Source: a virus
Virus record (IMG/VR): IMGVR_UViG_3300033066_000693
Location: 1 to 64,000 of that record
Length of the DNA: 64,000 bases
Direction: 5' to 3' (one strand)
This document shows positions 13,679 through 17,633 of the stretch, piece by piece (position 1 is the stretch's first letter; every line of letters begins with the position of its first letter). The notes beneath the pieces are model-generated. The model worked only from the letters and a program-made list of their open reading frames with translations, was not told where the DNA came from and did no database searches. Made by a program: the position numbers and the translations under genes.

Positions 13679-14419
13679 ATGTCAAAATTAAAAGCAGAAG
13701 ATTATCGAGATATTCACCTCAAATGGATTTCTGGGGAAAGAGTAATTACTCTAAGTGAAAAATATGGAGTAAGCGGAGATACTATCATAAGAATAGCAAA
13801 ATCTTATGGTATAGAAAATAATCTATCAATTAGAAGAGAAAGACCACCACTTCCATGCCGAAATGATATTACCGGGAAAAAGTTTGGACATCTTGAAGTT
13901 ATTAAGATGATTCACTCAGGAGTAAAAAGAACTTCTTGGAAAGCTTTATGTAAATGCCATCTCTGCGGTAATGAAACATTTTCTTGCTGTCCTAAGTATC
14001 TTAGACAAAGAATGAATCAAACTTGCGGATGTTCCACTTGGGAGCGAAAAAAAGGGAAAGACAGTCCATTTTTTAAGGGATTTCAAGGGATAACTGGTTC
14101 TTTTTGGCACCAAATAGAAAAGGGAGCAAAAACCAGAGGATTTGAATTCAAAGTTTCTATTCAACATGCATGGTCGCTTTTCCAACAACAAAGTGGAAAA
14201 TGCAAACTGAGTGGTATAGAATTGAGTATTGGTCAATCAAACTATGATGAAAGAACAGCCTCATTTGACAGAATAGATTCTTCTGTAGGATACATAGAAG
14301 GTAATGTTCAATGGGTTCATAAAGACATCAACAAAATGAAACTACATCATTCAGAAAAGTATTTTGTTGAACTTTGTCAAAAAGTCGCTAGTCATGCAGC
14401 ATCAAAAACTACTAACTAG
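13679..14419 (+). CDS. free-standing HNH homing endonuclease (phage HNH_3 type)
   Basis: C-terminal ASFDRIDSSVGYIEGNVQWVHKDINKMK; AT-rich relative to flanks; RBS AGGAGG. Confidence 0.7.
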   Translation: MSKLKAEDYRDIHLKWISGERVITLSEKYGVSGDTIIRIAKSYGIENNLSIRRERPPLPCRNDITGKKFGHLEVIKMIHSGVKRTSWKALCKCHLCGNETFSCCPKYLRQRMNQTCGCSTWERKKGKDSPFFKGFQGITGSFWHQIEKGAKTRGFEFKVSIQHAWSLFQQQSGKCKLSGIELSIGQSNYDERTASFDRIDSSVGYIEGNVQWVHKDINKMKLHHSEKYFVELCQKVASHAASKTTN

Positions 14420-15260
14420 AGATCAATTCAAGAATGATTGTCTCAAACGAGATAATCATCGCTGTGTAATTTGCAAAAATGACAAAGATATTGTTGTTCA
14501 TCATATTCTTGAACGAAGGTTGTTCCCAGACAGCGGCTATTACATCAACAATGGCTCTAGCCTTTGTTCGGTTTGTCATTACAAAGCTGAGACGACAGAG
14601 ATCTCTGTTGAACAGATTAGAGCCGCCTGCAAGATTGAGGAGACAGACAAGATACTCCCTCCTCAACTCTATGACGACCAGCAATACGATAAATGGGGCA
14701 ATCCCATTCTCCCGAATAAGACTAGACTTCGGGGCGAGCTTTTTGACGATCCTTCTGTTCAGAAGGTTCTAGGCGAGGGGAATGCGCTAAACCTGTTCAC
14801 GAAGTATGTCAAGTATCCGAGAACTTGGCATTTGCCGTGGTCGCCGGGAATAACGAAGGACGACAGGGTTATTCCGTCATGCGATCAGTTTGTAGGGAAG
14901 AACATCGTTGTAACCGTCAAGATGGACGGAGAGAATTGTCTGGATGGGGAAACGCTAATAACTACCAGAGATGGGCCAGTTTCTATCAAGGAACTTTGCC
15001 ATAGAGATGGCGTATTTGAGGTTCTGTCGTTCAACCATGAAACAGGTCAACAGGAATGGAAGAACGTTGAAGCAAAACGGATTCTTTCGCCAAGCGAAGG
15101 CTGGTACGAGATTGAATTAGAAAATGGACAGTCGATTCGGTTGACCGGAGAGCATAGAATTTGGTGCGAGAATCTGAGTTGCTATCGCATGGTCAAAGAC
15201 CTTGACGGTAGCGAAGAACTACGGATGGAAATTTTGCCCGAAAAGACAGAAAGGCGGTAA
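14394..15260 (+). CDS. RNA ligase N-extein (HNH-like CxxC/HH Zn motif, KYPRTWHL, motif I KMDGEN) fused to split-intein N-fragment (IntN, 14937-15257)
   Basis: intein block A CLDGETLITT directly after KMDGEN; block B TGEHRIW; ORF ends about 107 aa into the intein. Confidence 0.6.
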   Translation: MQHQKLLTRDQFKNDCLKRDNHRCVICKNDKDIVVHHILERRLFPDSGYYINNGSSLCSVCHYKAETTEISVEQIRAACKIEETDKILPPQLYDDQQYDKWGNPILPNKTRLRGELFDDPSVQKVLGEGNALNLFTKYVKYPRTWHLPWSPGITKDDRVIPSCDQFVGKNIVVTVKMDGENCLDGETLITTRDGPVSIKELCHRDGVFEVLSFNHETGQQEWKNVEAKRILSPSEGWYEIELENGQSIRLTGEHRIWCENLSCYRMVKDLDGSEELRMEILPEKTERR

Positions 15261-15262
15261 GT

Positions 15263-15946
15263 ATGGTACGTGTTATTTTTGCTCTGTTCCTGACTGTTTT
15301 TGTTTCTGTCAATTGCTTTGGAGATCCTCCAAAGACTGACAATACAGCGGATACATCTAACCAACCATTGAGCGAACTGGCGAAGATCAAAGCCGAGTAC
15401 AAGGCACAAGAAATTGCGAGAGTCAAGAGAGAAATCGAAACCGACAAGGAATGGCTTCGTACCCATTATTCCTCCCTTCAAGCAAAAGATGATGAGAGAG
15501 AAGCGATCCGTAAAAGACTTGCTAAAAATAAAGAATGGCTGAGAGGGGTTGAGTCAGGTAAAACTTCTGTTGAAATACCGTCTATTTTGGGAAAGTTTCC
15601 GCTACAAGTTGGAACATACGGCTCTCTTGATGTCGTAAACGTCTTCCAGAAAATAAACGATAAGGAAGCCATTTGTCGAGTTTATACTGCGGAGGTCAGT
15701 GGGGCCGTTCTAAGTGGAAATAGGTATCTTGTCCCTACTTATAAGACTGTAGAACATCTTATCTTGTTCAAAGGTTTTGATTGCTCCAAGGTAGTTAATG
15801 GAGCGGGGCTGGGGATCAATGCCGTTGTTAAGGTTTCAGGTACATATACTTATCAAACCGCAAACGGGACAAATACTATCTTTGTTCTAGAGCGGGTAAG
15901 CGATAAGGCGGAGGCAACAAAAACTGAAAATAAACCAGAAAAATAG
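15263..15946 (+). CDS. hypothetical secreted protein (signal peptide) encoded between the intein halves
   Basis: N-terminal hydrophobic MVRVIFALFLTVFVSVNCFG; frame differs from the ligase frame. Confidence 0.4.
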   Translation: MVRVIFALFLTVFVSVNCFGDPPKTDNTADTSNQPLSELAKIKAEYKAQEIARVKREIETDKEWLRTHYSSLQAKDDEREAIRKRLAKNKEWLRGVESGKTSVEIPSILGKFPLQVGTYGSLDVVNVFQKINDKEAICRVYTAEVSGAVLSGNRYLVPTYKTVEHLILFKGFDCSKVVNGAGLGINAVVKVSGTYTYQTANGTNTIFVLERVSDKAEATKTENKPEK

Positions 15947-15967
15947 AAGGAGCATCTATCTTGATGG

Positions 15968-17014
15968 TTGAATATCTCTGTATCAGGAGAATCAACCATG
16001 AGAAAATGCTTCAACTGCGGGTCGGAAATAGACAAGAGAGACGGAAATCACGTTCATCGGTGTTGCAAAAATAAAGGAATGACCAAAGACCAGATTCGTT
16101 TCAAGCAAATCTGTTTTGAAAGCGGCAAGGAATGGACGAAGACTGAAATTGAAAAACTGTACGTTGCAGACGGGCTTAGTTTGCCTGATTTTCAAAAGCA
16201 ATTCGGACTGATTTACCCTCAAACTCAGTTTCTTATTAGTTTTTTTGGGCTTAAACAAAGATCCATCAAGGAAGCCAATGCCGCCCCACAAAGGTCTGCG
16301 AAGCACAAAAACACCTGTCAAGAGAGATACGGTCAAGATAACGTGTCTCAGGTAGAAGATGTCAAGGCCAAGAAGCAGGCAACTTTCCTCAAGAACTATG
16401 GAGTAGACAACATATGGAAACTACCCGCATACTACGATTGGCTCCACGACCATATGGTTGCCAAGTACGGGAAGGCGAGTCTACCAAATCGCTTTGGCAA
16501 TAAGACGAAGTGGTGGGAAGAGGTTGATGATGTGACTCGAAATCGAATAGCCCAGTCCATGCATGATGGATATAGGGAGTATTGGAAGAATCTCAGCGAG
16601 GAAGAAAAAGATGCCGTCATTCAGACCAGATGTCGAAAGATGCTGGCTCCGAATTTTTGCAGCAAACAGGAGGCAAGGATTGCGTCGTCACTGACGGCTC
16701 TTGGTTTAGGGTATAAGCATCAGTTCTGGATCGCTCGCCGCAGTTACGACTTTCGGATGTATGGCTTTGACAGAAATCTGATTATCGAGTACAATGGAGA
16801 CTTCTGGCACGCCAATCCGATCATCTACAAGGCGGAGGATCTACTGAGTCATCCAGACGGGAAAATCAGGGCTGCTGATATCTGGGCAAGAGACGAAGCG
16901 AAGAAGAAATTGGCAGAAAAATACGGGTATACAATAGTGTATATCTGGGAATCAGAGATCAAGAAGTTGGGTGAAGAGTCGTTGCAGAAGTTGATAGTGG
17001 ACCGACTGGAATAG
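15968..17014 (+). CDS. putative free-standing endonuclease (N-terminal Zn ribbon; C-terminal Vsr/DUF559-like PD-(D/E)xK domain)
   Basis: CFNCG..HRCC; C-terminal IIEYNGDFWH ... YGYTIVYIWESE. Confidence 0.45.
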   Translation: MNISVSGESTMRKCFNCGSEIDKRDGNHVHRCCKNKGMTKDQIRFKQICFESGKEWTKTEIEKLYVADGLSLPDFQKQFGLIYPQTQFLISFFGLKQRSIKEANAAPQRSAKHKNTCQERYGQDNVSQVEDVKAKKQATFLKNYGVDNIWKLPAYYDWLHDHMVAKYGKASLPNRFGNKTKWWEEVDDVTRNRIAQSMHDGYREYWKNLSEEEKDAVIQTRCRKMLAPNFCSKQEARIASSLTALGLGYKHQFWIARRSYDFRMYGFDRNLIIEYNGDFWHANPIIYKAEDLLSHPDGKIRAADIWARDEAKKKLAEKYGYTIVYIWESEIKKLGEESLQKLIVDRLE

Positions 17015-17018
17015 GTCA

Positions 17019-17633
17019 ATGAAAATCAGACGGATACAAAAAGTAGCCAACGACTCCCATAGGTATGACCTATCTGTGGAGGGCAACGAGAACTTCTTTG
17101 CCAACGGCGTTCTTGTGCATAACTGCACGATGTACAAAGACTACATTCATGCTCGGTCCCTTGCTGATAAGAAGCATTGGTCAAAGAGTTGGATCAAGAA
17201 CTTTCATGGGCAGATTGCTCATCAACTTTCCGACGACATGAGACTGGTCGTTGAGAATATGTATGCCAAGCATTCGATCAAGTATACAATGCTTCAGTCA
17301 TACGCTTACGGTATCTCCGTTTGGCAAGGGCTGACGTGCCTTAGCTGGCGCGATACCGAAGTCTTCTTTGACGTACTTGACATTCCAAGAGTTCCTGTTC
17401 TTTACGAAGGGATCTGGGACCAAAGCATCTTTGATAGGTTCAAAGTACCTGAGAGGCACAATGGACCCGGCGACGAGATGGAAGGCTATGTTGTCCGATT
17501 AACAGATAGCTTCCATTATCGTGACTTTAGCAAGAGCGTTGCTAAATATGTCCGTAAAGGGCATGTCAAAGGCGATGACCATTGGTTCTATGGAAAAGCT
17601 GGCGAAAAGAATGAACTCAGGACGATAGAATAG
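17019..17633 (+). CDS. split-intein C-fragment (IntC, 35 aa, 17019-17123) fused to RNA ligase C-extein (motifs III FDV, IV EGYVVR, V KYVRKGH)
   Basis: MKIRRIQKVANDSHRYDLSVEGNENFFANGVLVHN-C resembles DnaE-type IntC; same frame as the N-extein ORF. Confidence 0.6.
   Translation: MKIRRIQKVANDSHRYDLSVEGNENFFANGVLVHNCTMYKDYIHARSLADKKHWSKSWIKNFHGQIAHQLSDDMRLVVENMYAKHSIKYTMLQSYAYGISVWQGLTCLSWRDTEVFFDVLDIPRVPVLYEGIWDQSIFDRFKVPERHNGPGDEMEGYVVRLTDSFHYRDFSKSVAKYVRKGHVKGDDHWFYGKAGEKNELRTIE

Follow-up and report, generated by a model that had tools for sequence, protein, structure and literature searches.

The DNA analyzed here, hereafter the window, is a stretch of 64,000 nucleotides from a virus (positions 1 to 64,000 of the IMG/VR record IMGVR_UViG_3300033066_000693), and the locus of interest within it is an RNA ligase gene encoded in two pieces, each of which carries one part of a putative naturally split intein (IntN, the N-fragment; IntC, the C-fragment). 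Between the two pieces lie the gene of a Vsr-like homing endonuclease and, ahead of it, an additional open reading frame (ORF) referred to here as the passenger. The ligase portions flanking the intein are called the N- and C-exteins, and related loci are identified by handles of the form L001. The features are:

14394–14936, + strand: N-extein, with an HNH-type zinc-finger domain and the N-terminal portion of the RNA ligase nucleotidyltransferase domain, ending in motif I KMDGEN
14937–15260, + strand: intein N-fragment, 107 aa, with Cys1, block A CLDGETLITT and block B TGEHRIW; TAA stop at 15258–15260
15263–15946, + strand: passenger gene; its 227-aa product starts with a signal peptide and is modelled as a helical hairpin plus a five-stranded beta domain
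15941–15952, + strand: conserved motif AAATAGAAGGAG, preceding the endonuclease leader hairpin
15951–16010, + strand: RNA hairpin in the endonuclease 5' leader, pairing AGGAG (15985–15989) with ATG (15998)
15998–17014, + strand: gene of the free-standing homing endonuclease, 338 aa, with an N-terminal Cys/His finger, DUF7487 repeats and a C-terminal Vsr-like (EDxHD) domain
16767–16795, + strand: sigma-70-like promoter match TTGACA-17-TACAAT (speculative), within the endonuclease gene and 224 nt upstream of the C half
17019–17123, + strand: intein C-fragment, 35 aa (MKIRRIQ...NGVLVHN), TIGR01443 match
17124–17633 including the stop, + strand: C-extein, beginning with Cys+1 (17124) and holding the remainder of the ligase nucleotidyltransferase domain, motifs III VVENMY, IV EGYVVR and V KYVRKGH

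The N ORF (14394–15260) encodes 288 residues from its ATG, of which residues 1–181 (...VTVKMDGEN) are extein and 182–288 intein, and the C ORF (17019–17633) encodes 204, the first 35 being the intein C-fragment. The two ligase-half ORFs share a frame (both starts at 0 mod 3) and the two middle ORFs lie in another. Both halves, intein blocks A and B, the 35-residue C-fragment, Cys+1, ligase motifs IV and V and the common frame were all found where an earlier reading of the bare sequence (the original prediction) had placed them, and the ORF at 15263–15946 with its signal peptide is likewise present. That prediction had also described all of these genes as tightly coupled, which holds for the N half and the passenger (2 nt apart) and for the endonuclease and the C half (4 nt), and fails for the passenger and the endonuclease, which are separated by 51 nt with the hairpin; it had correctly recognized a Vsr-like endonuclease between the halves and had started it at TTG 15968, whereas the start is most likely ATG 15998 with AGGAG at 15985–15989, and the stop is the TAG at 17012–17014, 4 nt before the C-half ATG. 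Finally, it had called both intervening genes unrelated, but only the 227-aa ORF is an extra: by analogy with the loci that Dassa et al. described in 2009, the endonuclease is the cassette's mobility gene.

The host enzyme is recognizable in both pieces: positions 2–179 of phrog_24030 (RNA ligase, 342 positions) match residues 5–184 of the N ORF (E 4e-68) and positions 175–340 match residues 34–200 of the C ORF (E 5e-43), Pfam RNA_ligase PF09414 matches the C half (E 9e-16, 58.9 bits vs. a cut-off of 27), and the Pfam HNH match in the N-extein is weak. Intein-less homologues (340–350 aa) are colinear at the junction, reading ...VKMDGEN-T(T/S)MY.DYIHARS... with no gap, whereas the window at the same point reads ...VKMDGEN, then the intein, then CTMYKDYIHARS...; because these homologues run gap-free across the junction, the insertion sits precisely and directly after nucleotidyltransferase motif I. 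The in-silico spliced product comes to 350 aa, not the roughly 360 previously estimated, and has Cys replacing Thr after KMDGEN. K169, D171, G172, E173, E218-N219, E294-G295 and K315/V317/R318 are invariant in 35 ligase homologues, and motif I keeps its K, D, G and E unchanged in 38 split and 35 intein-less homologues; motif III, formerly assigned to FDV, is in fact VVENMY, whose E-N pair is among the invariant positions in the 35 homologues, and adenylylation is predicted to take place at Lys176 of the N ORF. The ligase has the fold of the T4 Rnl2 adenylyltransferase domain and carries no T4_Rnl2_C domain, ending about 30 residues past motif V and featuring an N-terminal HNH domain instead; because it lacks the Rnl2 C-terminal domain, it is Rnl2-like in its catalytic domain and not an Rnl2 orthologue.

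By sequence, the two intervening fragments are predicted to form a class-1 intein (HINT domain) that is naturally split. With the intein profiles that the original prediction had proposed as a check, both halves score above the curated NCBIfam cut-offs: intein_Nterm (TIGR01445) gives 38.6 bits vs. 24.5 over N ORF residues 182–256, and intein_Cterm (TIGR01443) gives 37.9 bits vs. 15.6 over C ORF residues 15–36. When fused, the halves (145 aa) align over positions 6–142 with the NrdJ-1 split intein, whose structure is solved (8ubs, E 1e-12), and also with Spl DnaX (4e-7), the DnaB mini-intein (1e-5) and the gp41-1 intein, and the C-fragment matches positions 122–155 of the Pfam Intein_splicing profile. 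Among 38 homologous split N halves, 46–71% identical to that of the window, Cys1 and the block-B His are invariant, the Thr is kept in at least 90%, and every one stops about 95–107 residues into the intein; all C halves examined retain ...HN followed by Cys or Ser (...VLVHN then C in the window). The fragments are furthermore oppositely charged, with a net charge of -8 for IntN and +4 for the first 16 residues of IntC.

The 338-aa endonuclease matches phrog_3339, annotated 'homing endonuclease' (E 2e-18), and its DUF7487 match is above the Pfam cut-off. A profile of nine endonuclease homologues reaches E. coli Vsr (1cw0, E 2e-3), with E225, D251, H271 and D298 aligned to Vsr E25, D51, H69 and D97; the first three are invariant in 9/9 homologues and D298 in 8/9 (Asn in L161). 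No direct sequence match to 3R3P (I-Bth0305I) was obtained from the endonuclease. The hairpin in its leader folds at -22.5 kcal/mol (z -3.9; none of 200 shuffles folds as well) and is kept in L009, L010 and L082, where one compensatory pair turns the ATG into GTG, and an analogous hairpin is present in L001 (z -5.7). The T4/Aeh1 late-promoter element TATAAATA was not found at the locus, and promoter and terminator scans gave nothing above shuffled background. It is also important to note that in L009 and L010 the 3' end of the endonuclease gene overlaps the start of IntC, unlike in the window.

The order of N half, endonuclease and C half recurs in L001/L165, L009/L081, L010–12, L157–L161 and L166, as well as in a short ligase without the HNH domain (L174/175), and about 10 diverged RNA-ligase loci share the fractured architecture. 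Comparison of the window with L009 reveals a marked discordance: the exteins are 63% and 57% identical, and IntN, endonuclease and IntC reach 91%, 88% and 97%, with synonymous divergence (dS) of 0.5–1.0 for the cassette and saturated for the exteins. The closest extein relative is in turn an uninterrupted allele (P0032/L163; 71% identity in the N part, 81% in the C part), whose sequence across the insertion point, marked here by a slash, AAGATGGACGGCGAAAAT/ACGTCCATGTACAATGAC (…GTAACAGTTAAGATGGACGGCGAAAAT/ACGTCCATGTACAATGACTACATTCATGC…), is a candidate homing site. Ratios of nonsynonymous to synonymous divergence (dN/dS; Nei-Gojobori, against two relatives) are 0.05–0.10 for IntN, 0.02–0.05 for IntC, 0.08–0.12 for the endonuclease and about 0.2 for the exteins. 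A cassette that is both more conserved than its exteins and under purifying selection points to homing, as judged from these sequence comparisons, and such discordance is the expected signature of cassette movement between diverged alleles.

To place the intein lineage more broadly, IMG/VR viral contigs were scanned once with an alignment of the N halves. The scan returned about 40 distinct loci, more than the 'handful' of fractured cases previously supposed, each combining a Vsr-like endonuclease and an IntC with a related IntN that runs for about 100 codons to a stop; about 30 of them are further related cassettes at motif I of Rnl1, Rnl2 and OB-type RNA ligases and of ATP-dependent DNA ligases, and in nearly all the intein follows K-x-(D/H/N)-G. 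In-silico splicing combined with Pfam assigned the host enzymes to the T4 Rnl1 family (L180, L188, L200), to a true Rnl2 with its C-terminal domain (L215), to OB-fold RNA ligases (L179, L196, L197) and to ATP-dependent DNA ligases (L205, L224). In the HNH-ligase family the insertion point lies two residues further (KMDGEN before C) than in the others (KxDG before S, C or T). The endonuclease is decayed in L182–187, L190 and L212, absent from L179 and antisense in L188/189. Judged across L176–L233, this intein lineage looks like a specialist for the active-site motif of ligases.

Several individual loci stand out in their own right. In L162 (positions 2–1705) a canonical LAGLIDADG intein occupies the same insertion site of a related RNA ligase (EKLDGEN/C...HN/CTMY), and the one in-frame stop in its endonuclease domain reflects either an error or a nonsense mutation by which the intein is being split. 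In L083 (positions 1–5069; contig JACCDT010246368.1, 464 kb) an IntC and ligase C half follow an endonuclease of which the final ~145 residues are left; the 4 kb upstream contain no N half and hold instead a NAD-dependent DNA ligase together with four small ORFs of secreted, membrane or prepilin-like type. This may be a fractured gene in transition to a dispersed split gene, or one that has died. In L014–L017 (~2300–3970) a full-length endonuclease homologue, 34% identical, lies antisense beside an intein-less short RNA ligase, with a duplicated ligase fragment (the KYPRT.HL region) on its other side, a layout from which it follows that the endonuclease lineage targets intein-less RNA ligase genes too. 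A co-occurring strain, L013, matches the DNA of the window base for base from 14456 to ~17400, and beyond that (to 17851), from the 3' part of the C-extein onward, it falls to ~76% identity across a sharp recombination boundary beside the cassette. We considered the 100% block as a homing co-conversion tract and rejected this on the evidence of L076, which has the same C-extein variant as L013 (94.7% identical) and 100% amino acid identity in the upstream HNH gene and both ligase pieces; given L076, two near-identical strains with a recombination boundary near 17480 are the simpler reading.

The anatomy of the locus, the families of its proteins, their conservation, the purifying selection acting on them and the discordance between cassette and exteins are established computationally. 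We consider it highly probable that the locus is a fractured gene in a jumbo-phage-like genome, in which an HNH-Rnl2-type ligase hosts a split class-1 intein and a Vsr-like homing endonuclease cassette, and the core of the original prediction, an RNA ligase fractured by a split intein, has survived every computational test available. In light of these results, we propose that both ligase-half ORFs would be translated separately and that the acidic 107-residue IntN tail of one and the basic 35-residue IntC head of the other would associate into a HINT fold, which would carry out protein trans-splicing through Cys1, the block-B Thr and His, the terminal His-Asn and Cys+1 and release a 350-residue ligase whose sole scar would be the Cys for Thr after KMDGEN. 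The endonuclease, whose translation the hairpin over its ribosome-binding site and start codon would hold back, may cleave, near the motif-I codons, ligase alleles without an intein that co-infecting relatives bring in, whereupon recombinational repair would copy everything between the extein arms into the cut allele. The passenger should be copied along with the cassette, because its gene lies between the IntN stop and the endonuclease leader.

A number of points weigh against this interpretation, beginning with the fact that splicing, cleavage, homing and any role for the passenger are processes that we infer from the computed features. The endonuclease stays below both of its Vsr cut-offs (TIGR00632: E 1e-4, 22.5 bits vs. 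97.9; Pfam Vsr: E 0.025), and its single sequence finds no match among solved structures; the Pfam Intein_splicing score is likewise under the gathering threshold on each intein half, and the IntN tail of the window (..EILPEKTERR) is longer than in relatives. In addition, the C half is without an obvious ribosome-binding site of its own, 4 nt 3' of the endonuclease gene, and since it adjoins a gene predicted to be translationally repressed, balanced expression of the two ligase halves is left unexplained. The promoter-like site at 16767–16795 matches 11 of 12 positions and is kept in L009 and, as TATAAT, in L010, and could give the C half its own transcript or else be a coding coincidence: its conservation may be coding only, as it overlaps the codons of a conserved catalytic motif.

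The passenger protein begins with the signal peptide MVRVIFALFLTVFVSVNCFG, followed by D, and has one clear homologue (32% identity) and 172 remote relatives that are similar in size and belong to no named family; its AF2 model (pLDDT 72), from which the helical hairpin and the five-stranded beta domain are read, yielded no informative structural neighbours. The interval that it occupies, from the IntN stop to the endonuclease, measures 737 nt, and it is precisely from 15231 to 15928 that the DNA of the window ceases to resemble that of L009. In the same slot, L009/L081 encode an unrelated 168-aa protein with an N-terminal hydrophobic anchor, of which L082 has a 69%-identical copy, and L158 encodes a third unrelated ORF of 214 aa, lipoprotein-like; the three cargo types show no detectable mutual similarity. 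The slot of L010 contains ~300 nt of junk with a TA microsatellite, and L001 and L159–L161 have short spacers between IntN and endonuclease. Among the roughly 40 loci surveyed, only these HNH-ligase loci have a slot ORF that reaches 60 aa and cannot be put down to the endonuclease N-terminus; the short slot ORFs of L197 and L227 look like such an N-terminus.

The slot is bounded by related motifs. On its left is A(T/C)AGAAAG(G/A), followed after about 8 nt by an ATG, this left copy being the ribosome-binding site of the passenger, and on its right AAAATAGAAGGAG; the copies bracketing the cargo lie at 15230–15262 and 15941–15952 in the window and at 6830–6852 and 7367–7378 in L009, and the cargo-less L001 has a single copy directly after the IntN stop. 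In the left copy of the window a TAG to CAG change lengthens IntN by several codons. AAATAGAAGGAG is without enrichment elsewhere in the window and is therefore not a general phage promoter, and the bracketing AGAA(A/G)G(G/A)-type copies suggest, from their sequence and position, a motif-mediated exchange of modules.

Competing explanations have to be weighed for the ligase and for the passenger separately. That the split ligase is an artefact, or that it is decaying, is in neither case likely. An assembly or sequencing artefact, in which errors or a chimeric join disrupted an originally continuous intein containing an in-frame endonuclease domain, could appeal to the metagenomic source and to the L162 LAGLIDADG intein, whose single in-frame stop at the same site is perhaps such an error, but it is practically negligible: a stretch of 1758 nt, holding two long ORFs in a different frame, separates the halves, so that no single-nucleotide error accounts for the break, the endonuclease has its own ribosome-binding site and hairpin, the identical arrangement was assembled independently on 12 contigs from several samples, and the same organisation is present in the diverged L001, L009, L010, L157–L161, L166 and L174. 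If a mobile element had instead inactivated the ligase and left two unjoined halves to decay, the loss might be tolerated, as this genome and its relatives carry other RNA-repair genes, relatives also a second RNA ligase (e.g. L163), and degenerate cassettes are indeed present at related loci; yet ligase motifs I, III, IV and V and the splicing residues are intact here and in 38 homologues at 46–71% identity, dN/dS remains at about 0.2 in the exteins and 0.02–0.10 in the intein, and decay would not preserve the position of the stop, Cys1, TxxH, HN and Cys+1, making a dead gene improbable. A shade less probable still is a two-chain ligase in which the intein halves serve as a non-covalent docking module and never splice, as with Aeh1 NrdA. 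Genes in pieces without splicing do exist (Aeh1 nrdA/mobE and an SbcD-like locus), and motif I would form the very C-terminus of the N-extein, beside the docking domain. What speaks against docking is that the residues needed only for splicing (Cys1, block-B Thr and His, terminal Asn, +1 Cys or Ser) are invariant or nearly so, that a 142-residue HINT domain in the active site, after the adenylylated lysine motif, would probably block catalysis, and that NrdJ-1, the nearest relative with a solved structure, is a split intein that splices. A fractured ligase restored by trans-splicing is the explanation we retain.

The passenger allows a far closer contest. An incidental insertion into a tolerant spacer, with no functional passenger and no co-mobilisation, is a serious possibility to which we give somewhat less than even weight: most related loci have no ORF there, that of L010 having only junk with a microsatellite, and the cargo has no known function. 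It is harder to reconcile with three unrelated secreted or membrane-anchored proteins in exactly the same slot (the window; L009/L081/L082; L158), with the recurrence of the L009-type cargo in L082, with the motif copies on both sides of the slot and with the geometry of double-strand-break repair, which copies anything between the extein arms. As DNA between those arms should be co-converted in homing, a carrier role for the passenger is plausible, and we tentatively entertain, as the less favoured idea, that the cassette is a cargo vehicle besides being a selfish element. On this idea the stretch from the IntN stop to the endonuclease leader would be an exchangeable slot bounded by the repeated AGAAGG-type motif, into which unrelated genes for secreted or membrane-anchored proteins would be loaded and then spread among phages via ligase-gene homing; this, if true, would be a way of delivering morons that has not been described for either inteins or homing endonucleases. 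Equally tentative, and compatible with the cargo idea, is a specialisation of the intein lineage on motif I (KxDG), whereby it would have hopped among Rnl1, Rnl2 and OB-type RNA ligases and ATP-dependent DNA ligases via their shared active-site sequence.

The surroundings of the locus contain further mobile elements and enzymes. Upstream, a 43-aa ORF (13494–13625) duplicates ligase codons 1 to about 35 and stops right before the HNH 'HH', being nearer to an L001-type allele than to the resident ligase gene; a second free-standing endonuclease gene (13679–14419; HNH type, phrog_3322/3118) overlaps the ligase start with its 3' end, and in L010 a LAGLIDADG gene stands in its place. The 43-aa duplicate and the HNH endonuclease gene together look like the trace of a past event in which an HNH endonuclease cassette replaced the allele. 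The window also has a TnpB-like ORF (11144–12322; OrfB_IS605 and Cas12f-like TNB), and in L006/L007 (=L218/L219; 5989–8020) a TnpB (IS200/IS605 OrfB)-like element interrupts a short RNA ligase about 30 residues into the C-extein region. Genes for a NAD-dependent DNA ligase, NAMPT, a class II aminoacyl-tRNA synthetase and glutamine synthetase are encoded in the window as well, along with a eukaryote-like set unusual in a phage (20626–23325, 30147–31733 and 60219–61913) that comprises a major-vault-protein-like ORF (MVP shoulder and vault repeat), PARP catalytic and WGR domains, and Ro60 (TROVE and vWA). This gene set fits a jumbo-phage RNA-repair and NAD+ setting.

The architecture described here has been known since Dassa et al. 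2009 and is not rare, and its mechanism holds nothing unexpected; what is new is the host enzyme family for fractured genes and, as a modest structural variation, the passenger ORF. The 50,697 deposited phage records contain no fractured copy of the HNH-Rnl2-type ligase, the jumbo-phage homologues from Salicola, Ralstonia, Caulobacter and Acinetobacter being uninterrupted, and a DNA search of the same records with the locus gave only short, irrelevant matches; among the papers searched none reports an RNA ligase with a split intein, the only inteins that turned up being contiguous ones in actinophage RtcB and tRNA-splicing ligases. With this locus, fractured genes reach beyond DNA-synthesis enzymes to those of RNA repair, and its passenger poses the question whether homing cassettes can carry cargo. 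Phages use RNA-repair enzymes against host anticodon nucleases. Several stages of the intein/endonuclease life cycle are furthermore found at one active-site position (empty, canonical LAGLIDADG intein, fractured and possibly dispersed half), with fractured alleles whose endonuclease is intact, antisense, decayed or absent, such that ligase motif I offers a well-populated natural series for the study of intein and endonuclease evolution. Split inteins of fractured genes (gp41-1, NrdJ-1, IMPDH-1) are among the fastest protein-ligation tools, and the locus and its roughly 40 relatives provide a family of Cys1/Cys+1 (and Ser+1) split-intein candidates with a 35-residue C-fragment for protein engineering.

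Among known systems, the Ssp and Npu DnaE split inteins have an IntN of about 100–120 aa, an IntC of 35–36 aa, Cys1 and Cys+1, and oppositely charged fragments. The intein of the window resembles them in its natural split, long IntN, short IntC, Cys1/Cys+1 and opposite charges; the DnaE halves, however, lie far apart in the genome and have no endonuclease, whereas those of the window are 1.76 kb apart on one strand with a seemingly active endonuclease still in place. In Aeromonas phage Aeh1 the nrdA gene is interrupted by mobE (Friedrich et al. 2007; Crona et al. 2011), and there too a free-standing phage homing endonuclease splits an enzyme gene and a regulatory hairpin controls the endonuclease, but the NrdA pieces are reported to lack an intein and to assemble non-covalently. 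The endonuclease itself resembles I-Bth0305I (Taylor et al. 2011, PDB 3R3P), which defines the EDxHD family, a family that came to light in fractured genes, in the conserved Glu, Asp, His and Asp of its Vsr-like core and in its two-part build of an N-terminal DNA-binding region and a C-terminal catalytic domain; I-Bth0305I differs in sitting in a recA group I intron and in having NUMOD/HTH modules, the protein of the window being placed between split-intein halves and carrying a Cys/His finger and DUF7487 repeats. HNH-Rnl2 RNA ligases have been described in jumbo phages (Iyer et al. 2021, PMC7824862), and the predicted spliced product matches them in combining an N-terminal HNH domain with an Rnl2-like nucleotidyltransferase domain and in its genome setting rich in RNA-repair, NAD+ and tRNA genes; all homologues in the 50,697 deposited phage records are uninterrupted, whereas the copy in the window is in two pieces.

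The closest parallel is provided by the fractured genes of Dassa et al. 2009 (NAR 37:2560), which include gp41-1 to gp41-8, NrdJ-1, IMPDH-1, NrdA-2, DnaE, DNA ligase and terminase loci and span eight host types. With these the window shares an N-extein with IntN, a free-standing Vsr-like endonuclease and an IntC with C-extein, on the same strand, with a hairpin (found at the endonuclease translation start in 15 of 16 of those loci) and in a phage context, and its fused intein aligns best with NrdJ-1. Where those loci have 27–51 non-coding bases between IntN and endonuclease, the window has 737 nt with a 227-aa ORF; the element TATAAATA, present in 10 of them, is absent here; and their endonuclease genes overlap the start of IntC by 6–69 bp at the 3' end (15 loci), whereas that of the window stops 4 nt before it without overlap. 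Its host, an HNH-Rnl2-type RNA ligase, furthermore lies outside the eight host types and adds an RNA ligase to the enzymes encoded by fractured genes.

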